Positions 12,219 to 42,148 of a stretch of 64,000 nt of DNA are shown here, piece by piece. The number at the start of each line of letters is the position of its first letter. Position 1 is the stretch's first letter. Source of the stretch: Candidatus Ryanbacteria bacterium RIFCSPLOWO2_12_FULL_44_26 (GTDB lineage Bacteria; Patescibacteriota; Minisyncoccia; Ryanbacterales; HO2-45-13); the NCBI GenBank assembly GCA_001821765.1, contig MHOA01000002.1:3141-67140 (forward strand), read 5' to 3'. The translations under genes and the position numbers were made by a program. Under the pieces are notes generated by a model, which was not told where the DNA came from, ran no database searches, and saw nothing but the letters and a program-made list of their open reading frames with translations.

Positions 12219-12722
12219 TTATAACATATGATTAGCCGCGAGAACGGTACGAATATCGTTCTCCGTTCGTATTCCTTCTTCAGGGAGCATGCCGAAGATA
12301 TGCAGCGTTTCCGTTTTAAGTGAAAAAAGATGGACTGCATCTCGAGGCAAAAGTTTCCTTACAATAAAAACGTCGTTTAGAAAATTCCATAACAATTCGT
12401 CATGTTCTGTTCCTTTGAGCAGACGCAAAAGAAAATCCCTAAATGCGAGCATATTCGGAAAGGAGGCAATAATATCGTCATTGGGCGCTTTAAGCAGTTC
12501 TGCGCTAATAAGCCGGTAGCCGTCGCGTACACCAATGAATATAATATCAACATGCGCAAAGAGTATAGTGTGCCCTTTTAACTTAGACTTTTCAAGCCGT
12601 ATGCTTTTTGCAATTGTCTCAATTTTTCCAAATGCACGAGTGTAGAAAATGATGCCGCGATCGGATTCTCCAATATCATAACTGCCCAATACAATAGCCT
12701 CGGTTGTATGATACGTGGTCAT
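12219..12722 (-). CDS. recO: RecO-like DNA repair protein, short form (N-terminal OB-fold region only)
   Basis: TEAIVLGSYDIGESDRGIIFYTRAFGKIETIAKSIR resembles the RecO N-terminus (GIVL..DYGE.D.I…T…GKI…AKG). 167 aa with no C-terminal Cys-rich domain. The start overlaps the ileS stop (ATGA). Confidence 0.5.
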   Translation of the reverse strand: MTTYHTTEAIVLGSYDIGESDRGIIFYTRAFGKIETIAKSIRLEKSKLKGHTILFAHVDIIFIGVRDGYRLISAELLKAPNDDIIASFPNMLAFRDFLLRLLKGTEHDELLWNFLNDVFIVRKLLPRDAVHLFSLKTETLHIFGMLPEEGIRTENDIRTVLAANHML

Positions 12723-15700
12723 GGCAAGATTTCTAACTCGTCTTTCTCACTCCATAGAATACGTTTGGCGTTTGTTTTTTGTAAGATGGTTTTTTGATGT
12801 TTTTTAAATTTTTCTTCCGGTCCTATAAGCAACTTGATGGCATCTTGCGGCTTGAGGTTGGCTTCTTTTCGAAGTTGTTGAACGCGGCGAATGAGTTCTC
12901 TTGCGTCTCCCTCATCGCGCAACTCGTCCGTAAGCGCCGTATCAAGCAGTATCTCACTTTTTAATGCTGCATCAAACGTAACTTCCTTTACATTCACCTC
13001 TTCCTTTATAAGTTCAAGAAGGCCTTTTGCGTCTTTTGATTTCATCAAACGCTCATTTTTTATTGCAAGCGCCTTTAAGGGCTGCCGGATTTTGATATTG
13101 GCTTTAGCCCGTGCCTCCAGCGCTATATTTACTATCTTGCGCACCTGATCCATGTCCTTAAGTAAAACCGCGGCACGCACGCTCTTCTTTCCTTTTTTAT
13201 AACTTGGCCAATCCTCAAGATGCACGCTCTCTTTTGGACCCCCGACTTCCTTATATATATGCTCTGCCAGAAACGGAGTAAACGGGGCGGATATAACTGC
13301 TAGGCGTATCAATACATCCTTTAATAACACGCTCACTACCTTGCTTTCACTGTTTTTTATTCTCTCGCGGGAACGCCGAACATACCAGCGGGATACATCC
13401 GCTCCAACAAAATCCTGCAAGGCCCTTGCAGCGTGCACGATTTCATATGATTCAATATGCGTTGTCATATTCCTTATAACATGATCAAACCGCAAGAGCA
13501 CCCACCGGTCCAAAACATGCTTCGGGCGTGTTATGCGTCTGATGCGTTTGGGAACAAAACTTCTTTGAGCATATGTCTGATAAAAATGAAGAACGTTTAA
13601 AAGGATGTCAGAAAAATTGCGGCGTGCTTGCTTTACGTCCTCTTCTGTAAAATATTTCCGATCCCACGGCTGGTTTATGGTGTAGAAATACCATCGAACT
13701 GAATCCGCACCATATGTTTCAATAAGCGCCATCGGGTCCACAATATTGCCAAGAGATTTAGACATTTTTTTTCCTTCTTTATCAAGCACATGTCCAAGCG
13801 AAATAACCGCCCTAAAAGGCGCTTTCCTTCCAAGAAGCGTTGCAACGGCAAGGAGATTATAAAACCAGCCGCGCGTCTGATCCACCGCCTCGGTAATATA
13901 ATCAGCAGGATAATCAATTTTACTAAAATCCGGCTTTCCTTTTTGAGCAAACGGAAAGTGTGCTTGCGCATACGGCATGGATCCCGAGTCGAACCAAGCA
14001 TCAACGACTTCGGAAACGCGGCGCATGTCGTTTGAGCATTGCCTGCACGACAATAAAATCCCGTCAATATAAGGCTTGTGAAGATCTAATTCACCCTCCT
14101 CATTGTATGGCCAGTTGCGGAGATGCAGTTCTCTTATCTCGCTTGTTTTCGGATACCACCAAGCCGGATAATCCTCTTCACGAAGACCTTGCATGGCGGC
14201 GTCAAGAATCCATAAAGGATCGCCGTGTGATACGATAAGCATCGTTTTTCCCTCATGCTTTTTTAACAGATCAAACAGCGCATTCATCATACGCTTTCGT
14301 ACATCACGAATACTCTCTCCGCCCGGCGGACTCTCATGGAAATGCTTTTTAAATGGATAGAGTTTTTTAAATTCTTTAAGGTCTCTGCCCACAAAATCTC
14401 CTGAATTGATGTCGTATAGCCGTGCATCAACAATAACAGGCGCTTTAATGATACTGGAAACAATTTCAGCCGTATCTTTTGCCCGCTGCAGCGGAGAGGA
14501 GAGTATAACATCAATGTTATGCTTTAAACGCTTTGCTTGTGATTGAACTTGTCTTCGGCCGCGTGCAGTAAGCTGAAAACCCTCTGTGTCCTGATTTAAA
14601 AGGGACACTGATACGACATTGCGGACATTATGCGCCGCCTCGCCGTGACGCATCAAAAAAACTCTTCCTTTTTGGGGAAAACGCAGCGTATCCAAATCTT
14701 CCAACGACCCAACCGTCTCCAGCGCGCCGCACTTTTCACATTTCCACACCGGCAAGGGCGTTCCCCAATAGCGTTCCCGCGAAAACGCCCAGTCTTTTTC
14801 CTCTTTTAACCATCCGCCGAAGCGGCCGTGTTTTATGTAATGCGGATGCCAGTCAATCGTTTCATTGTTTTTAATAAGTTCTTTCCGCACTTTATTTACA
14901 GAAACCCACCATGTTTTTCGCGCTAAATACATAAGCGGGTTTCTGCATCTCCAGCAGAAAGGATAATCGTGCTCGTAACGTTCGCTCTTAAAAAGCAAGC
15001 CGCGACCATCCAAATGGTTCATAATAAGGGGATCTGCTTTTTTAAAAAACGTTTCATGCCATGGTTTTCCCGGTGTTTGCATGTTTCCTTGTTCATCTGT
15101 TGTAATAACTGTCGGTAAACCATGCTTTTTGCTTAAATGAAAATCGTCATCCCCGAATGCCGGAGCTATATGCACAATCCCCGTTCCTTCACCGGTGGAA
15201 ACAAAATCGGCAGCTATTATTTTTGGGTGGCGCTGCGAATCGTCAGGAAATAAAGCATGATATTCTCTACCAACCAGTTCGGCGCCCTTTATTTTTTTTA
15301 GAATATTATGTTCAGCGGGCAAAACCGCAAGCCGCGATTCCGCAAGAATAAACGTAGTACCGTTCGCCTCTGCATACACATAATCAACTGCCGGATGCAC
15401 TGCAAGCGCCACGTTCCCCGGCAAGGTCCACGGTGTCGTTGTCCATACCAAAAAATACTCCCCCTCCTTGTCTGTAGGAAACTTCACGTAGACGGATTCC
15501 TCTGTTATTTTTTCATATCCCTGCGCAAGTTCGTGCGAGGAAAGGGCTGTACCGCATCGGGTACACCACGGCACAACTTTGTAGTCTTCATACAGATACT
15601 TTTTCTTCGAAAACTCCCTGATAATCCACCACAGTGTTTCAATGTATGAACTTTCATGGGTGATGTAGGGATGATCCATATCAATCCATAAACCGATTTT

Positions 15701-16078
15701 CTCCGTCATCCGTTCCCAAAGCTCTTTATATCTCCACACAGACTCCCTGCATTTTTTGTTAAACTCCGTAACGCCATATTTTTCAATGTCTTTCTTGCTT
15801 GCAAGGCCGAGCGATTTTTCAACTTCAATCTCAACCGGAAGCCCGTGCGTGTCCCAACCGGCACGACGAGGGACATAATACCCGCGCATTGTTTTATAAC
15901 GGAGCACAATGTCTTTATAGGAGCGCGATGCTACATGGTGCACCCCCGGCACTCCGTTTGCCGTTGGAGGCCCTTCAAAAAACACAAAATGTTTTTTCCT
16001 GCGCCTTGCTCTAACGCTTTTCTCAAAAATGTTTCTTTCTTTCCAAAACCGCAGCGTTTTCTCTTCATGGTTTTCCAT
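12719..16078 (-). CDS. ileS: Isoleucyl-tRNA synthetase with an internal ~195-aa histidine-phosphatase-like insertion
   Basis: 1119 aa; WDTHGLPVE, KMSKSLGN, and WFDSGS after the insertion. Contiguous ORF with IleRS sequence on both sides of the insert. Confidence 0.9.
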   Translation of the reverse strand: MENHEEKTLRFWKERNIFEKSVRARRRKKHFVFFEGPPTANGVPGVHHVASRSYKDIVLRYKTMRGYYVPRRAGWDTHGLPVEIEVEKSLGLASKKDIEKYGVTEFNKKCRESVWRYKELWERMTEKIGLWIDMDHPYITHESSYIETLWWIIREFSKKKYLYEDYKVVPWCTRCGTALSSHELAQGYEKITEESVYVKFPTDKEGEYFLVWTTTPWTLPGNVALAVHPAVDYVYAEANGTTFILAESRLAVLPAEHNILKKIKGAELVGREYHALFPDDSQRHPKIIAADFVSTGEGTGIVHIAPAFGDDDFHLSKKHGLPTVITTDEQGNMQTPGKPWHETFFKKADPLIMNHLDGRGLLFKSERYEHDYPFCWRCRNPLMYLARKTWWVSVNKVRKELIKNNETIDWHPHYIKHGRFGGWLKEEKDWAFSRERYWGTPLPVWKCEKCGALETVGSLEDLDTLRFPQKGRVFLMRHGEAAHNVRNVVSVSLLNQDTEGFQLTARGRRQVQSQAKRLKHNIDVILSSPLQRAKDTAEIVSSIIKAPVIVDARLYDINSGDFVGRDLKEFKKLYPFKKHFHESPPGGESIRDVRKRMMNALFDLLKKHEGKTMLIVSHGDPLWILDAAMQGLREEDYPAWWYPKTSEIRELHLRNWPYNEEGELDLHKPYIDGILLSCRQCSNDMRRVSEVVDAWFDSGSMPYAQAHFPFAQKGKPDFSKIDYPADYITEAVDQTRGWFYNLLAVATLLGRKAPFRAVISLGHVLDKEGKKMSKSLGNIVDPMALIETYGADSVRWYFYTINQPWDRKYFTEEDVKQARRNFSDILLNVLHFYQTYAQRSFVPKRIRRITRPKHVLDRWVLLRFDHVIRNMTTHIESYEIVHAARALQDFVGADVSRWYVRRSRERIKNSESKVVSVLLKDVLIRLAVISAPFTPFLAEHIYKEVGGPKESVHLEDWPSYKKGKKSVRAAVLLKDMDQVRKIVNIALEARAKANIKIRQPLKALAIKNERLMKSKDAKGLLELIKEEVNVKEVTFDAALKSEILLDTALTDELRDEGDARELIRRVQQLRKEANLKPQDAIKLLIGPEEKFKKHQKTILQKTNAKRILWSEKDELEILP
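14099..14686 (-). other. Histidine phosphatase (PGAM-branch) domain embedded in IleRS (aa ~465-660)
   Basis: RVFLMRHGEAAHN (RHG catalytic His motif), ILSSPLQRAKDTAEIV (S.L.RA..TA motif) and MLIVSHGDPL (second His motif). Flanked by IleRS CEKCG… upstream and …LHKPYIDG…WFDSGS downstream. Confidence 0.6.
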
Positions 16079-16084
16079 ATGATG

Positions 16085-16627
16085 CTAATCCGCAATGGTT
16101 ATGGTGATAATAACATCACCTCTTTCAATATGTTGAACCACATCCATGCCCTTAGCTACTCTCCCGAATACCGTATGTCTTCCGTCTAAATGCGGCTGGG
16201 GACGGGTTGTTACAATAAAAAACTGACTGCCGTTGGTATTGGGTCCGGCATTCGCCATGGCAATAACTCCTTCAACAACCTTAAGATCATTAATTTCATC
16301 GTCAAACATATATCCCGGACCTCCTGTTCCAATGCGCGGATCGTCAATGGGAAGTGTTTTGGTAAACGGGTCGCCCCCCTGAATCATAAAATCTTTCACC
16401 ACTCGATGGAACCGCACTCCGTCATAAAACCTATCACGCGCCAATGCCGTGAAGTGCTCCACGGTTCTTGGAGCTTTTTTGGGGTATAACTCAAGTTCGA
16501 TATCGCCTTTCGTTGTTTGAATAACGGCGTTTACCGTCCCTCCGCTCCTGCCGCCGGCAAGCCATATCACAAAACCCAGCACTGCCGAAATAAGAAGGAG
16601 GTTTAAAATGGTTTTTTTAGGCGCCAT
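16085..16627 (-). CDS. Peptidyl-prolyl cis-trans isomerase, cyclophilin type, with N-terminal signal/anchor
   Basis: HRVVKDFMIQGGDP, MANAGPNTNGSQFFI, GRHTVFG. Start placed at MAPKKTILNLLLISAVLGF. Confidence 0.85.
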   Translation of the reverse strand: MAPKKTILNLLLISAVLGFVIWLAGGRSGGTVNAVIQTTKGDIELELYPKKAPRTVEHFTALARDRFYDGVRFHRVVKDFMIQGGDPFTKTLPIDDPRIGTGGPGYMFDDEINDLKVVEGVIAMANAGPNTNGSQFFIVTTRPQPHLDGRHTVFGRVAKGMDVVQHIERGDVIITITIAD

Positions 16628-16723
16628 GCAATAAGTATACGGATGCGAAACGGTATTGAAAAGAGTCAGGCGCAACAGAAAACGAAACCGCTATGAAGAT
16701 TGGTTTTGTGAAATAGATGTTCG

Positions 16724-17185
16724 CTACAATATCCGCGGAGATTTTTTTATCTTTGCATCCAGCCCGAACATCCTACCGGCACGAACCGCAGCAAAGAAAA
16801 TAAGCACCAGCGCATAAACAATATGATCATCAACGATATAGCTATGCGCTCCGACACGCGGAAACTCAAGCAGAGGTAAGTAATAGAGCATCATCAATGC
16901 CGCACCAAGCATTGAAGACACGCGAACTCCAAGGCCTAATAGCAGTGAGATGCCAAGCAACGTCAGTCCCCATTCGTTCGCCAAATTCACCCATCCGATG
17001 TTTGCAGGACTGGCAAGATACGCAAAAAAGTCCGAAAAAGTCTTAGCATTGGCAAGATACCCGGCAGCTGACCACTCCGGATCTAACACCTTGGTGATAC
17101 CGGCATAGAAAAACAGCCATCCCATCGCAACGCGCAGCAGGACAACAATATCTTTTGCTACCATATTCATAAATGATGCGTTCAT
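16724..17185 (-). CDS. DoxX-family membrane protein
   Basis: About 150 aa with 4 TM helices in a DoxX-like arrangement (LLRVAMGWLFFYAGITK…). The ORF track's N-terminal extension was trimmed. Confidence 0.55.
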   Translation of the reverse strand: MNASFMNMVAKDIVVLLRVAMGWLFFYAGITKVLDPEWSAAGYLANAKTFSDFFAYLASPANIGWVNLANEWGLTLLGISLLLGLGVRVSSMLGAALMMLYYLPLLEFPRVGAHSYIVDDHIVYALVLIFFAAVRAGRMFGLDAKIKKSPRIL

Positions 17186-17272
17186 AAAAATTGACTTTAC
17201 ATTAATTTGATAACTAAAAAAACGATGGGCTTGACGGATTGCACTGTGTGTATACACCACTAAAGCCCTTCC

Positions 17273-17992
17273 TTAGAAAGGCAATGGCGCTGAATAAAGC
17301 ATAATAGCGCCAAGCGCCATAAGAAAAAACCCGACACCAAGCCGCATAAGCCCCCGATGTTTCTTTCTCCAGCTCTCAAGCTGTTCTGAAGTGGCTCCAA
17401 AATAAGAAACGCCGACAATAAAGAGAAGAGGAACGATGAACACAAAGTTATACAACAAAAGAAGCGGAACAGCGACATCATACGAACCCCTCTGTAGTAA
17501 ACCGAGAATAGCGAAATACGGAGCGCCGGTACACGGAAGCTCTATAAGGACGACAAACACGCCCAGAGCCGCTGTCGTAAGCATCATGAGTGTGGGGCTT
17601 TGCCGCTCCATCATTTCAATTTTTCGCGTATAGAGCTTCATTCGTTCAGCGCCTCCCGGTATCATCTGCAGACTAAACCCCTTTCCGTACCAAAAATAAT
17701 CCTTTATCTCAAGAAGTCCGGCAAGAATGGCGATAACGGCAACAATAAAGTAAAACCATGCTGATATTCCAATACTTCTGGTGATATTTATTACTCCAAA
17801 ACCAAGCGTCAAATATGTTGCGTAGACCACTAAAGTATATAAAAGCCCCCCCAAAAGCATCATTTTCCTGCTTCGAAAGACTCTCGTCATAAAAGCAATA
17901 AGGAAAATGAGCGCGCCGAAGACACATGGATTAATGCTGTCAGCAAGAGCTGCCGTAATAACAATTCCTAATGTCAGTTCATCTCCAAACAT
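17273..17992 (-). CDS. ccdA: Cytochrome c-type biogenesis/disulfide-transfer membrane protein CcdA/DsbD-TM family
   Basis: 239 aa with 6 TM helices and two conserved Cys in TM segments (DSINPC … LPCTGAPY). Confidence 0.7.
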   Translation of the reverse strand: MFGDELTLGIVITAALADSINPCVFGALIFLIAFMTRVFRSRKMMLLGGLLYTLVVYATYLTLGFGVINITRSIGISAWFYFIVAVIAILAGLLEIKDYFWYGKGFSLQMIPGGAERMKLYTRKIEMMERQSPTLMMLTTAALGVFVVLIELPCTGAPYFAILGLLQRGSYDVAVPLLLLYNFVFIVPLLFIVGVSYFGATSEQLESWRKKHRGLMRLGVGFFLMALGAIMLYSAPLPF

Positions 17993-18045
17993 GTGTTGAT
18001 GCTGCTATAAAATGCCGTACCGGATCAATCCAGCGCTGCCGGAAT

Positions 18046-18852
18046 CTAATCCTCAATAAGCGGGCATCCGGATATTTCGCTTAACTCCTCAAACGATACA
18101 ACCCCGGGTTCAAACCGATAAAGTATGCCGCCCTCACTATCCTCAAAAATCCATGTCGGCGTACGCTCTACATTCTTTTCAATACAGCGCTGCGCCTCGT
18201 GGTTCGGATTTCTTGGATCACACTCAATTTCATTTACATATTGAAACGAGTCTCCGAACATCGCCCTTTGCTTCGCGCAAAAAGAGCATGAAATAGACCC
18301 ATACATATAAAGCCGTTTTTCAGTGAGGCATTGCGCAAACGTATCATATTTCCCCGAGGGCACCGCGCTTTTATGAACGACGAAGGTGGCGCCTCCAAGC
18401 AGCACTGCAAGAACAAGGGCTGTGATAACGTTTTTCGCAGCAATTTTTTCTGGCTTCAGAGCGACAAGCGATACAACAATAATGCCCAAGATGAATACTT
18501 TTGAAGTCTCACAAAATACGCATATGTTTTTGAGAACAAAAAGCTCTATTCCCGTTAAGTACAAGGAAGGTCCCAAAAATACAATTGATAAAAACGCCAG
18601 GATTTTGAGGGTTGAGGTATTGTATCGAAAAATCACTACTCCCAAAACGCCAAGGAAATAGAATAACCCAAGCACCGACATCGGTATGCCGAATATTGTT
18701 GAATAAATACTCTTGTTGACTATATCGCAGGAAAGCCCTTCGCCCAAATTACAAAACGATCCTTCTTCCTCGGAATAATGCAAGGAGACTAAATACCCCA
18801 TAACCACAACGCCGACAATCGCCAAAACGATAAGAAGTATTTTTGCTATCAT
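18046..18852 (-). CDS. VKOR (vitamin K epoxide reductase) homolog fused to a C-terminal thioredoxin-like domain
   Basis: N-terminal TM core with a loop Cys pair (FCNLGEGLSC) and a CVFC CXXC in a TM helix, followed by a soluble domain with SCSFC; 268 aa. Confidence 0.65.
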   Translation of the reverse strand: MIAKILLIVLAIVGVVVMGYLVSLHYSEEEGSFCNLGEGLSCDIVNKSIYSTIFGIPMSVLGLFYFLGVLGVVIFRYNTSTLKILAFLSIVFLGPSLYLTGIELFVLKNICVFCETSKVFILGIIVVSLVALKPEKIAAKNVITALVLAVLLGGATFVVHKSAVPSGKYDTFAQCLTEKRLYMYGSISCSFCAKQRAMFGDSFQYVNEIECDPRNPNHEAQRCIEKNVERTPTWIFEDSEGGILYRFEPGVVSFEELSEISGCPLIED

Positions 18853-19002
18853 GTTTTCTTTTTTATGATTTGCAATAAAGTGTATAAACTTACAACAGTC
18901 ATGCTGTTGCTATCATTATAGCATCATCCAACCGACACGAAACCAAGAAATCCACAGCGATCTCCCTCTCTACTGTGAATATACATGCTATGCTAGAACG
19001 TT

Positions 19003-19770
19003 TTACTGCTCCGCCTCCCCCTTAAACAGCGAGCGCACTATGTCTCTTAACTCATTATAACTTCTTGGATTTCGTATGTTATTTCCGTTTAAGAAAATAG
19101 TCGGTGTTCCTGAAACTCCCGATGCGATACCGCTTCTGTAATCGTCCTCTATTTTTTTCTTTATAGAGGATAGATCAATATCTCTTTTAAACCCCTCAAT
19201 ATCAAGATCAATCCTCTGCGCATACTGCATGAATATGTCCTCCGCATCTTTTCTATTTGACCATTCCTGTTGGTGTTCAAAAAGCATATCATGCATTTCC
19301 CAAAACTTTCCCTGCAGTCCCGCCGCCTCTGCCGCCTGCGCGGCAATGCCGGCATTGGCATGGATTTGCTGTAAAGGAAAATGCCTAAATACCACCTGAA
19401 TATCATCGCCGAATTCACGCTCAAGCTGTGCCATCATCGGATAAAATGCCGCGCATGCCGGGCACTGAAAATCGCCGTATTCTATAAGAACAATGTCGGC
19501 CGTTTTACTTCCCCGTGTCCAATCAGTAGCGGAAACCGCGCTTGCCAACGGAAGATTCTGCTTTGAACCTATACTGCTTCCCAGTTTTATAAGACCAAAC
19601 ACGGCTCCTCCGGAAACAACAACAATGATAGCCCACAAATAAACGCGCTTAAACAATCTGGTTTTTTGTATGGCCTTTCTTCCCTGTTCCTTTTCCGCTC
19701 TTTTTAGTTCTCGTCTCTCTTTTTTTGTTACAGGCTGCTCATCAGTATGTGGCATTCCCTGATCATACAA
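19003..19770 (-). CDS. DsbA-family thiol:disulfide oxidoreductase (membrane-anchored)
   Basis: Lys/Glu-rich N-terminus, one TM, then a thioredoxin fold with YGDFQCPACAAF (CPAC active site). Confidence 0.75.
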   Translation of the reverse strand: MYDQGMPHTDEQPVTKKERRELKRAEKEQGRKAIQKTRLFKRVYLWAIIVVVSGGAVFGLIKLGSSIGSKQNLPLASAVSATDWTRGSKTADIVLIEYGDFQCPACAAFYPMMAQLEREFGDDIQVVFRHFPLQQIHANAGIAAQAAEAAGLQGKFWEMHDMLFEHQQEWSNRKDAEDIFMQYAQRIDLDIEGFKRDIDLSSIKKKIEDDYRSGIASGVSGTPTIFLNGNNIRNPRSYNELRDIVRSLFKGEAEQ

Positions 19771-19792
19771 AACTGCATGACCGCGGTCAATG

Positions 19793-20482
19793 CTACCTTA
19801 CATCCACCTGCACACGAGGATATTTGGATCTTAACGTTGCTGCGATCTTAGAAACATTCAGCTCTTTTGTTTTGTCCAAATGTTTATTGAGATTTTTCCC
19901 ATATCGTATGTCCTGAATGTAATACTTTTCTCCCGGCAGTAAATATCCTGCGATCGTAAAAAAATCTTCTTCGGCATGCTCGGCGGGAAATACGGTTGTT
20001 CTGAATTCATGATCAACTCCAGATGACTGAATGAGATAAAAGGTTTTCTTGCAGTTCTCAAGAGCTGTCTCGTTGCCGGTATGCGCAACACAATCATACT
20101 TTTCCCAACGATGTTTAACGTCCATCGCAATATAATCTAAAAGATCTGCGGCGATCATTTTCTCCACCATATTGGGATTTATGCCGTTTGTGTCAAGCTT
20201 TACCAAAAGATTCATTGATTTTATTTTTTTAATAAAATCCGGAAGGTCATGGTGCAGTGTCGGTTCTCCTCCTGTTATGCACACGCCGTCTATAAAGTTT
20301 CTTTGTCCATTTAAAAACCGAAGCACATCGTCCTCGCTGATGTAAGAATCCTGCTTGAGAGGAACGAGCTCCGGATTATGGCAATAAGGACACCGAAACA
20401 AACATCCTTGAGTAAAAACTACCGCCGCGACTTTCGCGGGGTAGTCAATAAGACTCAGTTTCTGTAAACCTCCTATGACCAT
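19793..20482 (-). CDS. nrdG: Anaerobic ribonucleoside-triphosphate reductase activating protein (radical SAM)
   Basis: GCLFRCPYCHNPEL is a CxxxCxxC radical-SAM motif of the NrdG type; sits directly downstream of nrdD. Confidence 0.85.
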   Translation of the reverse strand: MVIGGLQKLSLIDYPAKVAAVVFTQGCLFRCPYCHNPELVPLKQDSYISEDDVLRFLNGQRNFIDGVCITGGEPTLHHDLPDFIKKIKSMNLLVKLDTNGINPNMVEKMIAADLLDYIAMDVKHRWEKYDCVAHTGNETALENCKKTFYLIQSSGVDHEFRTTVFPAEHAEEDFFTIAGYLLPGEKYYIQDIRYGKNLNKHLDKTKELNVSKIAATLRSKYPRVQVDVR

Positions 20483-20485
20483 ACG

Positions 20486-22651
20486 CTACATATCAGCGCT
20501 GGCCTCGGTTTTATTTCCGGCTGCAACAATCGCGTACTGTATTTCTTTTTTCTTGAAAGGATATTCTTTGAGTCCCTTTTCAAGGCTATATTCTTCTCTC
20601 TCATTGTATTCACTCTGTTTTCCTTTATTCCACTCGCTGACAGGTCTAAAGTATCCGACGATTCGTGACCACACTTCGCACCTTGCTCCGCATGTCGGAC
20701 ATTGCACACATTCACCATTAAGATATCCATGAGCGGGACAAATGCTGAAAGTCGGGGTAACAGTGATATATGGCAGGTGAAAGCGTTCCGTTACTTTTCT
20801 GACAAATGCACGGCAAGACTCCCAGTCCCTGACGCGCTCGCCGAGGAAAAGGTGTAACACCGTCCCTCCGGTATATTTTTTCTGAAGGTTGTCTTGATGT
20901 TCCAGCGCGAAAAGAGGGTCGTCAGTATAAGAAACCGGCAAATGCGTTGAATTTGTATAGTAAGGAGCCTCGGGCGAACCAGCCTGCTTCATATCGGGAA
21001 ATCTTTTTTTGTCTTCTTTTGCAAACCGATATGTTGTGCCCTCTGCAGGCGTTGCCTCAAGATTATACAGGTTGCCCGTTTCCTCCTGATAATCAGCAAG
21101 CCGCTCCCGTATAAAATCAAGAATTTCCAGAGCAAATGATTTCCCTTCCGGCGTCGCAATATCGCTCCCAAGAAAATTCACACATGCTTCATTCATCCCG
21201 TTTATGCCTATGGTGGAAAAGTGGTTATGCAAAGTCGGCAAATACCGTTTTGTGAAAGGTAAAAGTCCCTTTTCAATATTTTCTGCAACGACTTTCCGCT
21301 TCATCTCAAGGGATTCCTTGGCAATATCCATCATGCGGCCAAGCCGATTGTAAAATTCCTCTTTGGTTTGAGTTAGATAGCCGATACGCGCAAGATTAAC
21401 GGTTACAACGCCGATGCTTCCCGTCATCTCAGCAGATCCAAAAAGCCCGCCGCCTCTTGCGCGAAGCTCACGCAAATCAAGCTGCAGCCGGCAGCACATA
21501 CTCCGAACATCTCCGGGGTTCAAATCGGAGTTAATAAAGTTTTGAAAATAAGGAGTGCCAAACTTTGCAGTCATTTCAAAAAGCGCGCGGGTGTTTTCAT
21601 TGTCCCAGTCAAAATCCTTGGTAATGTTGTACGTCGGAATGGGAAAAGTAAAAATTCTCCCGTTGGCATCTCCTCCTGTCATCACTTCAATAAACGCTTT
21701 ATTTATCATGTCCATTTCTTTTTGGCACTCACCGTAGGTAAAATCCTGTGCATTGCCCCCAATGACTGGATTTCTTTCGCGCATATCATCGGGGCAGACC
21801 CAATCAAGCGTAATGTTCGTAAACGGCGTTTGTGTGCCCCAGCGCGATGGCACGTTTAAGTTAAAAACAAATTGCTGTATTGACTGTTTTACCTGCTCAT
21901 ATGTTAAGTTGTCTTTTCTTACAAATGGTGCGAGATACGTATCAAACGACGAAAACGCCTGCGCGCCCGCCCATTCGTTTTGAAGCGTTCCTAAAAAGTT
22001 CACCATCTGGGCGACGGCGGTTTCCAAATGTTTCGCTGGATATGATTCTACTTTTCCCGGCACGCCGTTAAATCCTTCCTCTAAAAGCTGTCGCAAACTC
22101 CACCCCGCGCAGTAACCGGAAAACATATCGAGATCATGTATATGAAAATCACCATTTACGTGCGCATCTTTTATGTCTTTTGAATAAACGGAGTTAAGCC
22201 AATAATTCGCGATTAGTTTTCCTGAAGTATTCAAAATAAGCCCGCCAAGAGAATATCCTTGGTTTGCGTTTGCATTCACTCTCCAGTCCGAACGATCAAG
22301 ATATTCACCTATTGTTTTTTCCACCTCAATAATAGTGCTTTTTGTCGCTCGCGCCTGTGAACGTTTCTCGCGATACACAATATAAGCCCGCGCCGTCTTA
22401 TAATGCCCGCCACTCATAAGCGCGCGCTCTACGAAGTCCTGAATTTCTTCTACCGAAATCGCTTCCTTGATATTTTCCGATTGTAAAATTTCATCTACAA
22501 CGTTTTCAGTGATGTTTCTCGCTTCATCTACACCAAATTCTCCTGTCGCTTCGGCGGCTTTTAAAATTGCATTAAAGATTCTCGCTTTATAAAAAGCGGA
22601 TTCCTTTCCGTTCCGTTTTATAACTTTCATTTCCTCCATAGCATCCATCAT
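20486..22651 (-). CDS. nrdD: Anaerobic ribonucleoside-triphosphate reductase (class III RNR)
   Basis: 721 aa; ATP-cone-like N-terminus (VIKRNGKESAF), C-terminal CVQCPTCG…C zinc ribbon and glycyl-radical motif SRIVGYFRPV. Confidence 0.9.
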   Translation of the reverse strand: MMDAMEEMKVIKRNGKESAFYKARIFNAILKAAEATGEFGVDEARNITENVVDEILQSENIKEAISVEEIQDFVERALMSGGHYKTARAYIVYREKRSQARATKSTIIEVEKTIGEYLDRSDWRVNANANQGYSLGGLILNTSGKLIANYWLNSVYSKDIKDAHVNGDFHIHDLDMFSGYCAGWSLRQLLEEGFNGVPGKVESYPAKHLETAVAQMVNFLGTLQNEWAGAQAFSSFDTYLAPFVRKDNLTYEQVKQSIQQFVFNLNVPSRWGTQTPFTNITLDWVCPDDMRERNPVIGGNAQDFTYGECQKEMDMINKAFIEVMTGGDANGRIFTFPIPTYNITKDFDWDNENTRALFEMTAKFGTPYFQNFINSDLNPGDVRSMCCRLQLDLRELRARGGGLFGSAEMTGSIGVVTVNLARIGYLTQTKEEFYNRLGRMMDIAKESLEMKRKVVAENIEKGLLPFTKRYLPTLHNHFSTIGINGMNEACVNFLGSDIATPEGKSFALEILDFIRERLADYQEETGNLYNLEATPAEGTTYRFAKEDKKRFPDMKQAGSPEAPYYTNSTHLPVSYTDDPLFALEHQDNLQKKYTGGTVLHLFLGERVRDWESCRAFVRKVTERFHLPYITVTPTFSICPAHGYLNGECVQCPTCGARCEVWSRIVGYFRPVSEWNKGKQSEYNEREEYSLEKGLKEYPFKKKEIQYAIVAAGNKTEASADM

Positions 22652-22833: not shown

Positions 22834-24462
22834 TTACATCCTTTTAGGAGCAGTGACTCCAAGAAGCGCCAGCGTGCGTGCAAGCGTCTTTTGGGTTAAT
22901 TTCACCAGAGCAAGGCGGGCAAGCTCCTCATTTTTGCTCCCACCAAGCACGCGGACGTTCTCATAGAAATCCGTAAAGGATCGTGCGAGCTCATACGCAT
23001 ATTTTGTAAACCGCTGTACTTCGAAATCACGCGCTGTATCTTCCAGCGCCTCATAAAACGACAATATTCTAAGGAGTAACCGGCGCTCATAAACATCCTG
23101 TAAAATTTCCCATGCAGCATTTTTAAGGTTCATGCCTTTTTTGGACTTCTGTAAGATTGCGCTTGCACGCGCATGAGCGTATTGAACATAATACACAGGG
23201 TTTTTCTTTGATTGCTCCTTTGCCAAATCAATATCAAAGCTGATTGCGGTGCGGGGACTGTATGCTAAAAGAAAAAAGCGAAATGCATCTTTCCCCACTT
23301 CGTCTAACACTTCCCTTGCCGTTACAAAATGTCCTTTTCTTTTAGACATTGATACGATGTTCCCCTCTTTGAGCAAATTAACCTGCCCGTGAACAATAAT
23401 TTTGAAATGTTCTTTGGGAAAACCGAACACTTCAGCAACCGCATACAGTTTTGGAATGTGCCCCTGATGTCCTTCTCCCAAAACATCAACAACAACGTCA
23501 TTTCTTTTGAACTTTTCTTTATGATACGCGATGTCGTTTGCAAAATATAAATACGTTCCGTCGTTTTTTACCAACACCGCCTCGCGTTCCTTCATATATT
23601 CCCCTCCGGGGCTAAACCAAACAGCCCCTTCTTTCCTTTTTAACACTCTTTTCTTCTCCAATTCATCCAGCACTTTTTTTGTTTTTAATTTTGCAAGCTT
23701 GCTCTCATGCGTTACTTTATCAAAATGAATTCCCATTGCTTTTATCGTTTCAAAGTTCTCTCTTAAAAGTTTATCAAAAACAAATTGGAGCAATCGTTCT
23801 TTTCCGTCTTTCTTTTTTATAAATTTATCCTTAAACCTGCCTTTCGCCTTGTCCGCAAATTCTTTTACATAATCTGACGCATACTGAATTTCTCCCATAT
23901 GAGATTCTTTCCCGCACGCAAGTAAGTACCAATGCCAAAGCGAATCACGAAAAGCCCCGACCTGTGCACCGGCGTCATTATGAAAATATTCCCGTATTAC
24001 CTTGTAACCCGTCTCCTCTAAAAGATGAGCAATAACATCTCCAATGGGCCCCCCTCGGGCATTTCCTATATGAAGCGGCCCTGTCGGATTTGCAGAAATA
24101 AACTCCACGCTTACTCTCCGAAGCTTGAGTGAAAAAGGACTTGTTTTTTTTCTTTCTTTTCTTTTTTCTTTAACAAATTCCTTTATCCGGTCGTAGATAT
24201 ATTCATCCTTAATAAAAAAATTTAAAAAACCCGGTCCCGCAACCGCAACCTCTTTAAAAACATCCTTCTGTTTAAGAAATATCGCTTCCGATATGTTTTT
24301 CGCAACTTCAAGGGGCGGCTTGCCTTGCTTTTGAGCAAGCGCCATAGCGGCATTTGAGGAATAGTCGCCTCGCTTAGGATTTTCCTGACATTCTATAGAA
24401 AAGGCGATATCGCTCCCGATTTCTTCTTTTATTGCTTTCATGACAACATCCCGAATGGTCAT
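22834..24462 (-). CDS. argS: Arginyl-tRNA synthetase
   Basis: 542 aa; FISANPTGPLHIGNARGG (HIGH), GDYSSNAAM, and the C-terminal DALR anticodon-binding region. Confidence 0.9.
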   Translation of the reverse strand: MTIRDVVMKAIKEEIGSDIAFSIECQENPKRGDYSSNAAMALAQKQGKPPLEVAKNISEAIFLKQKDVFKEVAVAGPGFLNFFIKDEYIYDRIKEFVKEKRKERKKTSPFSLKLRRVSVEFISANPTGPLHIGNARGGPIGDVIAHLLEETGYKVIREYFHNDAGAQVGAFRDSLWHWYLLACGKESHMGEIQYASDYVKEFADKAKGRFKDKFIKKKDGKERLLQFVFDKLLRENFETIKAMGIHFDKVTHESKLAKLKTKKVLDELEKKRVLKRKEGAVWFSPGGEYMKEREAVLVKNDGTYLYFANDIAYHKEKFKRNDVVVDVLGEGHQGHIPKLYAVAEVFGFPKEHFKIIVHGQVNLLKEGNIVSMSKRKGHFVTAREVLDEVGKDAFRFFLLAYSPRTAISFDIDLAKEQSKKNPVYYVQYAHARASAILQKSKKGMNLKNAAWEILQDVYERRLLLRILSFYEALEDTARDFEVQRFTKYAYELARSFTDFYENVRVLGGSKNEELARLALVKLTQKTLARTLALLGVTAPKRM

Positions 24463-25646: not shown

Positions 25647-26927
25647 TTAGGACGCCGGTGCGAAAGCTTTCGCACCTATGTCGCGTCGGTATTGCATGCC
25701 CTCAAACTCAATCAGCCGTGCCGCTTCGTATGCGCGGTCGAGCGCATTGCGGAGCGTGTCGCCGATTGCTGTTACGCCGAGCACTCGTCCACCGGACGTT
25801 TTGAGTTCGCTGTCAAAACTTGTACCAGCATGGAACACAACGACGTTAGACACACGCTCCGCTTCGGCTACGCCGTGAAGCGGCACACCCTTCTTGTATT
25901 CATCAGGATAGCCGCCAGAGGCAATGATAACGCACGCTGCAAAGCCGGAGTGCCACTTGATCGCGAGTTCAGTAAGAGTACCATCAACGCACGCCTCCAA
26001 AATGTCAAGTAAATCGGTTTTGAGAAGGCGCATGTAGCTTTGCGTTTCGGGGTCGCCGAACCGCGCATTGAACTCCAGCACCTTTGGCCCGTTTGTCGTC
26101 ATCTTGAGTCCGGGGTAGAGTAAGCCGCTAAATGGCCGCCCGCGTTTTGCAAGTGTTTTAAGCGTTGGACGAACGATTTGCTCGCCGAGAGTTTGCAGTG
26201 TGTCCGCGCTTACCCACGAGAGAGGAGCGATTGTTCCCATGCCGCCGGTGTTTTTGCCCTCGTCGCCGTCGCGTATCGGTTTGTGATCTTGCGCGGGCGG
26301 CAGCAAAACGAAAGTTTTGCCATCGCAGAACGCATGGATGGAAATTTCTTGCCCGTCAAGAAATTCCTCAACAACCACTTCGTTGCCTGCGTTCTTGTGA
26401 ACACGGTCAAGCATGATTTCCGCGAGCGCAGCTTCTGCTTGAACGAGTGTCTTGCAAATGTACACGCCTTTGCCGAGCGCAAGTTCGCTTGCCTTTACGA
26501 CGATGGGTGCGCCGTGTTCACGAACATGCGCAAGGGCATTGTCGTATTCGCTAAAAATCTTGAAAGTTGCTGTTGGTATTCCAGCTTCACTCATCAGATT
26601 TTTAGCGAATGCCTTAGACGATTCGATTTCTGCGGCGGCACGCGTTGGGCCAAAAATCCGCAGTCCTCGCGCGCGAAAAGTGTCTACAACACCGAGCGCG
26701 AGCGAATCGTCCGGTCCGACAACGGCCAAACCGATTTCGTTCTTCTCGGCGAACTGAACCAACCCGTCAATGTCGGTAGCGTCAATCGCTATATTCTCCG
26801 CAATCTGACGCGTGCCGCCGTTTCCGGGCGCAACATACAGCTTGCCGATACAAGGCGATTGCGCGAGTTTCCACGCAAGTGCGTGTTCTCTCCCGCCACT
26901 GCCGACAATTAAGACGTTTGTGCTCAT
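25647..26927 (-). CDS. purD: Phosphoribosylamine--glycine ligase
   Basis: MSTNVLIVGSGGREHALAWKL at the N-terminus and an ATP-grasp body. Start taken at the internal Met; the upstream extension in the ORF track is hydrophobic junk. Confidence 0.85.
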   Translation of the reverse strand: MSTNVLIVGSGGREHALAWKLAQSPCIGKLYVAPGNGGTRQIAENIAIDATDIDGLVQFAEKNEIGLAVVGPDDSLALGVVDTFRARGLRIFGPTRAAAEIESSKAFAKNLMSEAGIPTATFKIFSEYDNALAHVREHGAPIVVKASELALGKGVYICKTLVQAEAALAEIMLDRVHKNAGNEVVVEEFLDGQEISIHAFCDGKTFVLLPPAQDHKPIRDGDEGKNTGGMGTIAPLSWVSADTLQTLGEQIVRPTLKTLAKRGRPFSGLLYPGLKMTTNGPKVLEFNARFGDPETQSYMRLLKTDLLDILEACVDGTLTELAIKWHSGFAACVIIASGGYPDEYKKGVPLHGVAEAERVSNVVVFHAGTSFDSELKTSGGRVLGVTAIGDTLRNALDRAYEAARLIEFEGMQYRRDIGAKAFAPAS

Positions 26928-27262
26928 TGTTTTCCTCTTTGTTGAATGTTTACTATGCCAATGTACTACATTAATTATAGCCAAAAAAATTAAAAAACTC
27001 GGAATCTGTTCCGAGAACTTTTCAGTATTCAAAATTTTCGTGCGCGCATTTCAGAAAAGTTTTTGAAGCGAGGGGGGGGCGGGCATTCCTCCCCCCATTC
27101 CCCTCCTGCCGCGCCGCCCGAGCGTTCCGCCGTAGCGACTTGTGGTGAGCTTGGTCGAACCAAGCGGAGGCGGGTCAGTTTTCTTCAAAATACTTTCGCG
27201 CTACGTTCAGAATATCCCACTGAAAACACAAAACCCACCATTAAGGTGGGCTGTGTTTTCAG

Positions 27263-27622
27263 TGGAAGTGGCGGGAATTGAACCCGCTTGGGGAAAGGTT
27301 GCCTACGAGCATCTACACAGATAGTCGGTTTGGATCACTACATGCTGTAAAACCAACAAAACGCATGCAGGTGTGTTTTCTTTTAAGTTTCCTATGCACC
27401 TAGAAAACGAACGATGCACAGTAGTTCGGAATTTGACACCGGAATCGTTACCTTACGAACATCAGTAACACCGATGGCTTACGCTAACTTAAGCGTAAAC
27501 AGGTTGAAGCTGATTGCTTCTAAATAAGTTTGCACTTATTGTTCAAACGGAGATTCAAAAGCGACGTTCACGCTTTCTGTGCGCCCATTAAGAATAACTT
27601 TCCCTCGAGGCCTAACACTCCC
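27263..27622 (-). ncRNA. ssrA: tmRNA (ssrA)
   Basis: Minus-strand 5' end GGGAGUGUUAGGCCUCGAGGG pairs with the 3' end GGUUCAAUUCCCGCCACUUCCA (T-arm plus acceptor; CCA not encoded). Resume context AAUAAGU-GCA AAC mirrors E. coli; predicted tag ANLFRSNQLQPVYA then UAA. Lies immediately downstream of smpB. Confidence 0.75.
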
Positions 27623-41950: not shown

Positions 41951-42148
41951 GTGGGACTTACCTACCTCTTGCTCCTGGACATCCTCGTTGGGGTGGTCTG
42001 CGGAGTAGTGGCGAAACGGAAAGGGATGAATCCTCTGTTCTGGTTCATCTCGGGACTGCTGTTTAACCTCTTCGTCCTTGCTTTTCTGGTTGCGATGGAC
42101 CATCCGCCAGTGAAAGTATGGGATGCGAAAGGAAAGGAACGAAAATGA
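41951..42148 (+). CDS. Small 2-TM membrane protein (~65 aa), GTG start
   Basis: SD AGAGGAG 8 nt upstream of the GTG; VGLTYLLLLDILVGVVCGVV…FISGLLFNLFVLAFLV. Its stop overlaps the next gene's start (ATGA). Confidence 0.5.
   Translation: MGLTYLLLLDILVGVVCGVVAKRKGMNPLFWFISGLLFNLFVLAFLVAMDHPPVKVWDAKGKERK

Follow-up and report, generated by a model that had tools for sequence, protein, structure and literature searches.

A histidine-phosphatase module nested in the CP3 subdomain of a type-2 isoleucyl-tRNA synthetase from the Candidate Phyla Radiation

Few enzymes are as strongly conserved as the aminoacyl-tRNA synthetases. Bacterial ones rarely carry extra catalytic domains, and a complete enzyme housed within the connective peptide of the catalytic domain has, to our knowledge, not been described. 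The ileS gene on contig MHOA01000002.1 raises the question whether an isoleucyl-tRNA synthetase (IleRS) houses just such a second enzyme and, if so, where it came from and what it does there. An earlier note on the 64-kb stretch of DNA analysed here (the window) had claimed that a complete, apparently active histidine phosphatase, encoded at 14099-14686, is spliced into the catalytic core of an otherwise ordinary IleRS, and that this architecture is undescribed.

Two enzymes in one reading frame

The IleRS half of the protein is complete, i.e. the GXHH signature, the KMSKS loop and the editing, anticodon-binding and type-2 C-terminal domains are all intact (Table 1). That ordinary IleRS flanks the insert is borne out by the ileS model TIGR00392 (848.9 bits, cutoff 621.4) and by the alignment to the solved IleRS2 8c8w, which covers both sides (query residues 4-455 and 648-1035 correspond to 13-467 and 471-849). 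Residues 1-464 comprise the first half of the Rossmann fold, the CP core, the CP1 editing domain, CP2 and the start of CP3, and residues 661-1119 the end of CP3, the second half of the Rossmann fold, the stem-contact fold and the anticodon-binding domain. The editing domain is matched by 1wk8 (residues 187-373, E=8.5e-39) and contains the CP1 editing motif TTTPW (residues 213-217). In the alignment the non-canonical class I signature has the same letters as the GVHH mutant 8c8w, and a GXHH variant has been described for IleRS2 (PMC10485003). The C-terminus carries the type-2 domain (PF19302, DUF5915; residues 1043-1114) and lacks the C-terminal zinc-binding domain found in IleRS1. Equivalog score, signature motifs, CP1 editing domain and type-2 C-terminus together place the protein in IleRS2, in line with the match to 8c8w (E=7.8e-244) as compared to IleRS1 8c9f (E=2.9e-107). 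Assignment to the mupirocin-resistance enzymes MupA and MupB was rejected (820 and 782 bits; cutoff of the NCBIfam exception models 1900). The AF2 model of the full protein (pLDDT 90.3, pTM 0.84; pLDDT of the module alone 88.8) has IleRS2 8c8v as its top Foldseek match (TM 0.78 on the target). No second ileS was found within the window.

Nested in CP3 of this IleRS is a whole histidine phosphatase of ~180 aa with a substrate cap. The claimed coordinates correspond exactly to residues 465-660, and the match to Pfam PF00300 (His_Phos_1), the check proposed in the earlier note, is strong (residues 473-645, E=3.6e-35, 121.9 bits, cutoff 21.7, profile positions 1-174 of 194), cutting the PF00133 match of the synthetase into two stretches. 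About 190 residues stand where the ordinary IleRS2 8c8w has only a few, and the distance from WGxPLP to WFDSG, 61-70 residues in ordinary type-2 IleRS, is 237-270 residues in insert-bearing enzymes. Nor is the segment the ordinary CP or zinc region, since an insert-less relative (locus L088) has ~16 residues at this position. The module separates the two CxxC motifs that form the zinc knuckle of CP3, a subdomain that binds zinc in Thermus thermophilus IleRS and is variable, tolerating different topologies (PMC7191050). Thus, the claim of an insertion into the catalytic core holds as regards the nesting in IleRS, but the site is the peripheral, variable CP3 and not the Rossmann core.

All three hallmark motifs, RVFLMRHGEAAHN (R477/H478), ILSSPLQRAKDTAEIV (R532) and MLIVSHGDPL (H618), are present, and GGES (E588) adds a fourth catalytic element. 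The distances, given earlier as ~50 and ~90 aa, measure 54 aa from H478 to R532 and 86 aa from R532 to H618. Profile score, catalytic residues and α/β fold make the module a branch-1 histidine phosphatase, although it stays below every NCBIfam phosphatase equivalog cutoff, the highest-scoring model being NF005567 (82.9-87.7 bits, cutoff 326). Several narrower assignments were tried and rejected: dPGM (dPGM_arch 78.9-83.3 bits versus 225; pgm_1 30.4 versus 81.7; GpmB 59.8-65.3 versus 261), the α-ribazole phosphatase CobC (TIGR03162, 75.5-80.9 bits versus 162.9) and SixA, which requires a score above the TIGR00249 cutoff and a minimal fold lacking the cap. Phosphoglycerate mutases have HGN at the second-His motif, where the module has SHGD and many of its homologs SHE; this difference, together with scores far below the dPGM cutoffs, also speaks against the module being the phosphoglycerate mutase of the cell.

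Table 1. Features of the ileS locus (positions in the window; residue numbers refer to the ileS product)
Feature	Positions	Strand	Basis or remark
recO (RecO_N)	12219..12722	(-)	overlaps the ileS stop by 4 nt
ileS ORF, 1119 aa, type-2 IleRS with nested histidine phosphatase	12719..16078	(-)	
IleRS C-terminal part, aa 661-1119	12719..14098	(-)	PF08264 at 857-1003; PF19302 at 1043-1114; alignment to 8c8w
KMSKS loop, aa 771-775	13754..13768	(-)	K771, M772, S773 and K774 invariant
WFDSG strand, aa 695-699; Rossmann fold resumes	13982..13996	(-)	invariant
CP3 zinc knuckle, second CxxC (C678, C681)	14036..14047	(-)	invariant
Histidine-phosphatase module, ~aa 471-652	14123..14668	(-)	extent as in free-standing P0250
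H618 in SHG, second catalytic histidine (predicted)	14225..14227	(-)	invariant
E588 in GGES, proton donor (predicted)	14315..14317	(-)	invariant in A1; E in 217/223 large-host copies
R532, phosphate-binding arginine (predicted)	14483..14485	(-)	invariant
R477-H478, RHG motif; H478 predicted phospho-histidine nucleophile	14645..14650	(-)	invariant
IleRS N-terminal part, aa 1-464	14687..16078	(-)	PF00133 at 8-470; 1wk8; invariant columns
CP3 zinc knuckle, first CxxC (C447, C450)	14729..14740	(-)	invariant in 54 homologs
Class I signature, non-canonical GXHH (G45-V-H-H48)	15935..15946	(-)	sequence; alignment to 8c8w
argS, plain ArgRS, 542 aa, without phosphatase	22834..24462	(-)	

Conservation and origin of the nested module

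A phosphatase gene joined chimerically into ileS, be it by assembly or by gene calling, might produce the same picture, and the source organism is uncultured, so that its sequence presumably stems from a metagenome assembly; moreover, a related locus (L016) appears to be split at the module. This split, however, is a 13-N scaffold gap and not an IleRS divided at the module boundary. The reading frame runs on through both edges of the insert, whose GC content (0.451) equals that of the rest of the gene (0.451). The PF00133-PF00300 architecture recurs in each of the 120 best database homologs (47-57% identical), which come from many independent assemblies (NCBI, JGI, ENA, Logan) and include the closed Niyogibacteria genome CP066691.1. 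Because of this conservation across independent assemblies we regard a chimera as excluded, an artefact of any kind being barely conceivable. The nested module is present at 23 GTDB species loci, and the nested architecture is a conserved trait of a large bacterial lineage in the Candidate Phyla Radiation (CPR).

R477, H478, R532, E588 and H618 are invariant across 54 homologs of ~50% identity, and all five are retained in 217 of the 223 copies found in large hosts, four of the six exceptions being truncated sequences. The module thus looks complete and active, as the earlier note had proposed, and, judged from the sequences, its catalytic residues appear to be under purifying selection. With a mean identity of 39%, as compared to 58% for the synthetase body, the insert evolves faster; the two identities co-vary (r=0.62), which fits vertical co-inheritance. 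Some lineages (P0037, P0060, P0075, P0081) lack most of the cap.

A search of related genomes for IleRS with or without the insert, as suggested earlier, revealed both states. Where ileS has no insert, a free-standing gene for the module (hp, 191-195 aa) may lie immediately upstream, in the order argS-hp-ileS-recO. Four such copies (P0250, P0259, P0172, P0152), with argS upstream where the flank is visible, are among the 150 closest 50%-cluster representatives, share 35-39% identity with the query insert and have the same start, end and catalytic residues as the nested module. In other related genomes the phosphatase is fused to the C-terminus of ArgRS (P0243, P0279, P0280). The module borne by ArgRS in P0280 shares 50-52% identity with P0250 and P0259 and 45-49% with particular inserts of IleRS; for the one in P0279 the identity to P0172 is 49%. 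Among the representative clusters with a module embedded in a class I synthetase IleRS is the host in 94 of 96, and the module occupies four different insertion sites (A, A', B, C), which in the linear sequence flank both the WFDSG strand and the KMSKS loop. Some IleRS carry two copies, as do those of Peribacteria and Peregrinibacteria, and ValRS hosts (P0171, P0208) carry up to four. Rare fusions join the module to TsaC/Sua5 (P0178, P0398-P0400) or ATP sulfurylase (P0195 cluster), whereas the contexts of a free-standing two-domain phosphatase (P0177) and of P0135 and P0150 lay away from synthetase loci or were uninformative. At the locus level, with 8-64 kb covered per genome, the free state and the fused or nested states are distributed in a complementary manner. 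In a crude NJ tree built from the IleRS bodies two insert-bearing groups emerge, each of them monophyletic, a topology that fits a single as well as a multiple origin of the insert.

The gene neighbourhoods revealed only housekeeping synteny, ileS-recO-DUF11-class II aaRS, with recO downstream of ileS in related CPR loci as in the query, and no kinase, RNA-repair or nucleotide-metabolism partner among the conserved neighbours. The nested phosphatase is probably a neighbouring gene that was captured and then repeatedly retained on class I synthetases. As capture was repeated by three class I synthetases and at several sites, more than neutral co-expression seems to be involved, and regarding the module simply as an independent lobe may understate its functional coupling.

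Possible roles of the phosphatase

We consider it reasonably likely (about 60%) that the ileS product is a genuine two-enzyme polypeptide in which the module is an independent lobe acting on a small phosphorylated substrate. The module would fold autonomously and follow the standard mechanism of its family, i.e. H478 would attack the phosphorus, with the phosphate kept in place by R477, R532 and H618; E588 would protonate the leaving group, and water would free the phosphate from the phospho-histidine intermediate. Charging of tRNA-Ile by IleRS would proceed normally meanwhile, and the covalent linkage may mainly secure co-expression and co-localisation with class I synthetases. A small substrate is favoured by the cap, which is typical of small-molecule phosphatases, and the closest solved relatives are phosphomonoesterases. 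Our leading candidate, at somewhat less than even odds, is an unrelated phosphorylated small metabolite; something that adenylate-forming reactions yield as product or by-product (PPi or a nucleotide) is a more tentative choice, a protein or tRNA phosphate is unlikely, and a module without any catalysis very unlikely at best.

The tethered module might also be mechanistically coupled to its host, which we hold to be possible but rather doubtful: it would clear a product of ATP α-β cleavage, be it PPi or a nucleotide such as AMP, PAP or ApnA, and thereby pull or de-inhibit aminoacyl-adenylate formation. All heterologous partners among the closest relatives of the module (IleRS, ValRS, ArgRS, TsaC/Sua5, ATP sulfurylase) are ATP-consuming, PPi-releasing adenylyl-transfer enzymes, the free-standing gene immediately precedes ileS, with argS on its other side where the flank is visible, and the presence of two copies in IleRS and up to four in ValRS, catalytically intact and at four sites, suggests selection for local activity. 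We may even speculate, with still less confidence, that the subfamily is specialised as a partner of adenylate-forming enzymes, a product-clearing (pyro)phosphohydrolase driving ATP α-β cleavage, which CPR bacteria have placed beside or inside IleRS, ValRS, ArgRS, TsaC and ATP sulfurylase. The PPi-releasing partners are, however, a weak hint at adenylate chemistry, as CPR genes fuse promiscuously and Peribacteria possess a normal pyrophosphatase. TsaC of CPR bacteria is also fused to an Ogt-type DNA-binding domain, TruB, a 2H phosphoesterase, a DNA glycosylase, GNAT and NUDIX, and with so many unrelated partners a fusion in these genomes says little about function; the ArgRS fusion is explicable by simple read-through between adjacent genes. 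Phosphomonoesterases as closest solved relatives fit poorly with such coupling, and several insertion sites argue against a precise channelling geometry. The module can hardly replace a missing pyrophosphatase, since an ordinary inorganic one is reported from complete genomes of Peribacteria (PMC4736985), whose IleRS nevertheless has two modules. No pyrophosphatase motif was found within the window, which at 64 kb is too small to inform on this point, and no branch-1 histidine phosphatase acting as pyrophosphatase is documented in the literature we found. The histidine-phosphatase domain of MutT1, considered as a nucleoside-diphosphate-cleaving precedent, was discarded as such, being SixA-like and directed at sensor kinases (PMC12407098).

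This very domain, which dephosphorylates sensor kinases (PMC12407098), lends some support to a macromolecular target. Branch 1 includes protein phosphatases, and SixA, PGAM5, Sts-2 and the tau55 histidine phosphatase domain are among the structural matches of the module. The module would then dephosphorylate a protein, e.g. a phospho-histidine signalling protein or a KMSKS-loop serine phosphorylated by a HipA/HipT-like toxin kinase, or heal a phosphorylated tRNA end. For HipA and HipT the target is the KMSKS-type motif of GltX and TrpS, and the four insertion sites flank WFDSG and KMSKS in sequence; the loss of most of the cap in some lineages would leave the pocket more open, and a macromolecule as substrate would fit with this as well. 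We regard this reading as improbable; as to the tRNA-end and signalling substrates that the earlier note suggests, the cap favours a small substrate instead. Appended synthetase domains often serve binding roles, and the module might accordingly be a catalytically silent appendage, i.e. a structural, tRNA-binding or ligand-sensing (allosteric) domain of IleRS. The variability of CP3 and its tolerance of different topologies (PMC7191050) would permit this; however, the five catalytic residues are (near-)invariant in more than 200 copies in spite of 39% module identity and the same protein also occurs free-standing, so that a silent domain is highly improbable. An independent phosphatase lobe with a small substrate thus remains our preferred reading.

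CPR bacteria are minimal, mostly symbiotic organisms whose translation apparatus is known to be unusual. For a large part of this radiation the nested architecture is the norm, and it is apparently unstudied: neither the literature searched nor recent papers on IleRS evolution and structure mention a nested phosphatase. In this sense the earlier claim of an undescribed architecture stands, although hundreds of such sequences are already deposited under generic names. Current annotation reads 'class I tRNA ligase family protein' or 'hypothetical protein' only and could thus be improved. The locus keeps evolutionary intermediates together, i.e. free gene, end-to-end fusion, nesting at four sites and multi-copy forms, and so provides a clean natural example of the origin of a domain-in-domain protein. 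If the phosphatase services aminoacylation, it would constitute a new layer of tRNA-charging control; if not, it remains instructive as an instance of gene capture, neutral or driven by co-expression, in compact genomes. A role as partner of adenylate-forming enzymes, if true, would extend the catalytic repertoire of branch-1 histidine phosphatases and give minimal cells a novel means of tuning aminoacylation.

Comparison with known systems

With IleRS2 from Priestia megaterium (8c8v/8c8w) and Thermus thermophilus (1ile) the query has all IleRS domains and motifs in common, the zinc-binding CP3 included, but in comparison to 8c8w its ~190 additional residues amount to a complete second enzyme in CP3. 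This module is PhoE/iPSP1/CobC-like. PhoE (YhfR) from Geobacillus stearothermophilus (1h2e/1ebb) is a broad-specificity, free-standing phosphatase, and its relatives comprise the phosphoserine phosphatase iPSP1 (4ij5), GpgP (6s2q), the riboflavin-pathway HFP (9mmh) and CobC (6e4b); members of this group are free-standing proteins of ~200 aa with known small substrates, whereas the query module is nested in a synthetase and scores below the NCBIfam equivalog cutoffs. The free-standing CPR phosphatases (P0250, P0259, P0172, P0152) belong to the same subfamily as separate polypeptides, and the IleRS encoded beside them has an ordinary short CP3, in contrast to the module-bearing CP3 of the query. 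An IleRS with an extra enzyme domain is also represented by the curated family NF040702 (ileS_w_GNAT), which carries GNAT; the query is not a member (290 bits, cutoff 1999), the match resulting from the common IleRS body. A branch-1 domain is likewise joined to a nucleic-acid or nucleotide enzyme in the bifunctional RNase H/acid phosphatase proteins (NF005567, PRK07238), which we take to be of the Rv2228c type, and in mycobacterial MutT1 (Nudix plus RHG domain), whose SixA-like domain acts on sensor kinases (PMC12407098). Both, however, are end-to-end fusions, whereas the query is a domain-in-domain insertion.

Identity and placement of the nested phosphatase

The 1119-aa product of ileS (Table) is identified as isoleucyl-tRNA synthetase (IleRS) by the NCBIfam model TIGR00392 (isoleucine--tRNA ligase; 848.9 bits vs. 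a cutoff of 621.4), the next-best models being the type-2 enzymes MupA and MupB. In Pfam, the class I synthetase domain PF00133 (E=3e-110) is split into two stretches, Anticodon_1 and DUF5915 are further domains, and the search of the insert against PF00300 (His_Phos_1), proposed in an earlier note, gave a strong match at aa 473-645 (E=3.6e-35; 121.9 bits vs. a cutoff of 21.7). Judged by these profiles, the synthetase part belongs to IleRS2 and the insert to the branch-1 histidine phosphatase superfamily. The coordinates of that note correspond exactly to aa 465-660, and its three phosphatase motifs are all present, i.e. RHG (R477/H478), SPLQRAKDTA (R532), and SHG (H618); a fourth catalytic element, absent from its list, is GGES with E588 as predicted proton donor. 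The insert lies below every NCBIfam equivalog cutoff (dPGM, CobC, PspA, SixA, GpmB), so homology does not point to a specific substrate; membership in dPGM, SixA, CobC or MupA/B was rejected on curated cutoffs.

In the alignment to the solved type-2 IleRS 8c8w, residues 4-455 of the query correspond to residues 13-467 of 8c8w and query residues 648-1035 to 471-849, i.e. about 190 residues stand where the ordinary enzyme has just a few, confirming the insertion point and distinguishing the segment from an ordinary CP3, the zinc-knuckle connective-peptide subdomain. The insert is flanked by the halves of the zinc knuckle (C447-x-x-C450 ahead, LHKPYID...C678-x-x-C681 behind), all four cysteines being invariant in the homolog alignment, and thus occupies a peripheral, permissive subdomain. 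The notion of a phosphatase spliced into the catalytic core therefore holds for the catalytic domain, but the Rossmann core is spared. KMSKS (771-775), WFDSG (695-699), and the TTTPW motif of the editing domain are invariant across homologs, and the remainder of IleRS looks intact. The full-length AlphaFold model is of high confidence (pLDDT 90.3, pTM 0.84) and superposes on IleRS2 8c8v with a TM of 0.78 on target.

The five residues R477, H478, R532, E588, and H618 are invariant in a 54-sequence alignment (48% mean column identity) and kept in 217/223 copies within large host proteins; the exceptions are four truncated sequences and two with Glu replaced by Lys or Gln. This agrees with the earlier description of a complete phosphatase, whose activity is predicted from sequence. 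In a few lineages most of the cap is deleted. Evolution of the module is faster than that of the synthetase body (mean pairwise identity 39% vs. 58%), and their pairwise distances are correlated (Pearson r=0.62, 1431 pairs), a pattern expected if both parts are inherited vertically together under purifying selection. The polypeptide carries two complete enzyme modules, the phosphatase having a strongly conserved catalytic set and a small-molecule-type fold. The module would be a lobe of its own that works by the standard phospho-histidine mechanism, alongside which the IleRS part would charge tRNA normally.

The class I signature reads GVHH instead of HXGH; G/AXHH is a non-canonical IleRS2 variant linked to mupirocin hyper-resistance (Brkic et al. 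2023, PMC10485003). The consensus of homologs from the Candidate Phyla Radiation (CPR) is PGIHH, and GVHH also occurs in insert-less CPR IleRSs adjoining free-standing phosphatase genes. Peregrinibacteria-type IleRSs (P0139, P0188, P0182, P0223) are ~72 aa longer in their C-terminal region than the window's enzyme and the insert-less IleRS of a relative's locus, L088. This segment may correspond to the INS subdomain of ARD2 (2026 bioRxiv preprint), in which case the window's enzyme would be without INS.

Features of the window
Feature	Position	Strand	Remarks
LeuRS	1033-3540	minus
MetRS	4417-6000	minus
Class II HGTP-type aaRS	8996-10288	minus
ileS ORF	12719..16078	minus	1119 aa
Phosphatase segment of the earlier note	14099-14686	minus	aa 465-660
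Class I signature	15935-15946	minus	aa 45-48
argS-ileS interval	16085-22651	minus	cyclophilin, DoxX, unassigned membrane-like ORF, VKOR, DsbA-like thioredoxin, NrdG, NrdD
ArgRS (argS)	22834-24462	minus	plain
PurD (phosphoribosylglycinamide synthetase)	25647-27032	minus	complete; de novo purine synthesis enzyme
tmRNA gene	27260-27622	minus	Rfam RF00023, 92.8 bits; ARAGORN tag peptide ANLFRSNQLQPVYA
515-aa ORF	42118-43665	plus	without Pfam match at E<=1e-5

Spread, insertion sites, and copy number

Both PF00133 and PF00300 are present in all of the best 120 matches from a 5.8-billion-protein database, which share 47-57% identity with the query across 89-100% of its length, except for one partial copy with 100% identity. 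They were drawn from NCBI, JGI, ENA, and Logan assemblies, their source names including Giovannonibacteria, Niyogibacteria, Ryanbacteria, Nealsonbacteria, Harrisonbacteria, Sungbacteria, Paceibacterota, and Parcubacteria, and insert-bearing homologs are usually labelled 'class I tRNA ligase family protein'. One of the 120, P0030, sits in the closed 836,981-bp genome CP066691.1 in the gene order of the window (ileS, recO, DUF11/CLIPPER protein, class II aaRS). The GC content is 0.451 in both the insert and the rest of the gene. Given its recurrence in independent assemblies and a closed genome, the architecture is not an assembly chimera, and insert-bearing IleRS is real, robust, and lineage-wide. 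GTDB species genomes comprise both kinds of IleRS, with the insert at at least 23 loci and without it at at least 57, the distance from WGxPLP to WFDSG at the loci listed being 237-270 and 61-70 residues, respectively. A split synthetase in Yanofskybacteria (L016) was rejected, as a 13-N scaffold gap (L016:4177-4189) inside the module mimics two ORFs.

There are at least four distinct insertion sites: A, the CP3 hairpin, used in the window's enzyme; A', behind the DLHK..VD motif, where the second zinc knuckle would be; B, the loop behind WF(D/E)SGSMPYA; and C, between the stem-contact helix and the anticodon-binding domain. Some IleRSs carry two modules, at A and A' (Peregrinibacteria-type L018, L020, L022, P0223, P0196), at A and B (L012), or at B and C with an uninterrupted CP3 (P0188, P0182). 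Both copies are catalytically intact, and as copies from different proteins match by position while those of the same protein share only 30-37% identity, the duplications are old. In a crude NJ tree built from the IleRS bodies, insert-bearing enzymes form two monophyletic clades, one Paceibacteria-type with mainly a single insert, including the query, and one Peregrinibacteria-type with mainly two copies; the tree does not resolve how the two are related.

A search with the insert only (1.84 billion 50%-identity representatives, E<=1e-3) gave 16,256 matches. Among those listed, 149 were new relative to the first homolog search: 96 with class I synthetase flanks, 44 free-standing (<=260 aa), and 9 other. 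In two representative clusters the host is ValRS rather than IleRS: P0208, a full-length ValRS (948 bits vs. a cutoff of 704), has one module at the equivalent of site B, after the WFSSG strand, and P0171, a truncated ValRS, has at least four catalytically intact modules.

Gene neighbourhood and origin of the module

Five aaRS genes lie within ~24 kb on the minus strand (1033-24462), and much of their order is common to a closed Niyogibacteria genome (L082). In the window argS is 6.7 kb upstream of ileS, in other CPR loci adjacent or near, and the interval resembles a rearrangement or insertion specific to the lineage. Apart from the tmRNA gene, the 64-kb window gave no Rfam match and no tRNA genes. 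The group to which the genome belongs is usually described as lacking nucleotide biosynthesis; PurD is nonetheless encoded here.

In four (P0250, P0259, P0172, P0152) of six free-standing near relatives with readable contigs the phosphatase gene (hp) is directly upstream of ileS, and argS precedes hp wherever the contig shows the upstream flank. The L088 locus runs from argS through hp (195 aa) and ileS (984 aa) to recO, with 54 nt between argS and hp and 1 nt between hp and ileS. The L088 IleRS is without PF00300 and has an ordinary CP3; residues 5-462 and 667-1117 of the query align to its residues 9-487 and 504-961, ~16 residues corresponding to the query's ~204. The free L088 protein begins (NNKYYILRHGEA) and ends (GEVRELN*) at the same bounds as the nested module. 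In three clusters (P0243, P0279, P0280) the module forms the C-terminus of ArgRS, being 45-54% identical to particular IleRS inserts and, in P0280, sharing 50-52% identity with free-standing P0250 and P0259; the remaining 117 ArgRS matches listed have no module. No free copy was found near the nested-module loci compared, and hp adjoins ileS at none of the 57 insert-less loci listed, nearly all of which belong to other phyla.

The genetic linkage of the module to class I synthetases is persistent, and the evolutionary intermediates are unusually complete. Most simply read, the phosphatase gene was resident in an argS-hp-ileS operon and its neighbours captured it, the change probably running from free to captured. 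In L082 a GNAT acetyltransferase gene (L082:9225-9944) is directly upstream of ileS, the place of hp elsewhere. Together with the NCBIfam family 'IleRS with GNAT domain', this suggests that another neighbour may have been captured in the same way.

Possible function and known systems

The sole clue to the substrate comes from the fusion partners. Near relatives of the module also occur as fusions with TsaC/Sua5 (four clusters, one of them named Patescibacteria) and with ATP sulfurylase (one cluster with members from three sources, adjoining a sulfotransferase). All five partners, i.e. IleRS, ValRS, ArgRS, TsaC/Sua5, and ATP sulfurylase, cleave ATP between the α- and β-phosphates and release pyrophosphate, suggesting, at a probability of roughly 0.3, that the module clears a product of the partner reaction, PPi or a nucleotide. 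We keep this reading tentative since several points oppose it. CPR TsaC/Sua5 (threonylcarbamoyl-AMP synthase; P0401-P0513), strikingly promiscuous in its fusions for a protein of compact genomes, is mostly joined to an Ogt-type DNA-binding domain (PF01035) and more rarely to TruB, 2H phosphoesterase, a DNA glycosylase (3-methyladenine glycosylase) domain, GNAT, or NUDIX. Moreover, an ordinary inorganic pyrophosphatase is reported from complete Peribacteria genomes (PMC4736985), and Peribacteria IleRSs nonetheless carry two modules; a literature search found no documented branch-1 pyrophosphatase, and the closest solved relatives of the module are monoesterases. MutT1 was rejected as precedent for such a role, which PMC12407098 does not support. 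Alternatively, the phosphatase might act on protein or tRNA, e.g. undoing phosphorylation of the KMSKS loop by a toxin kinase, which is possible, but less favoured in view of the capped fold.

A full-text literature search, with most subscription journals outside its scope, found no histidine phosphatase described as part of IleRS or of any other aaRS, and recent papers on IleRS evolution and structure are silent on it. The architecture is thus apparently undescribed, as the earlier note had it, although the sequences are already public under generic names, and the finding offers a testable functional hypothesis for the nested phosphatase. Among the nearest analogies are NF005567 (RNase H/acid phosphatase) and MutT1, in both of which an RHG phosphatase is joined end-to-end to a nucleic-acid enzyme, while 'IleRS with GNAT domain' is an analogous curated family to which the window's enzyme does not belong.
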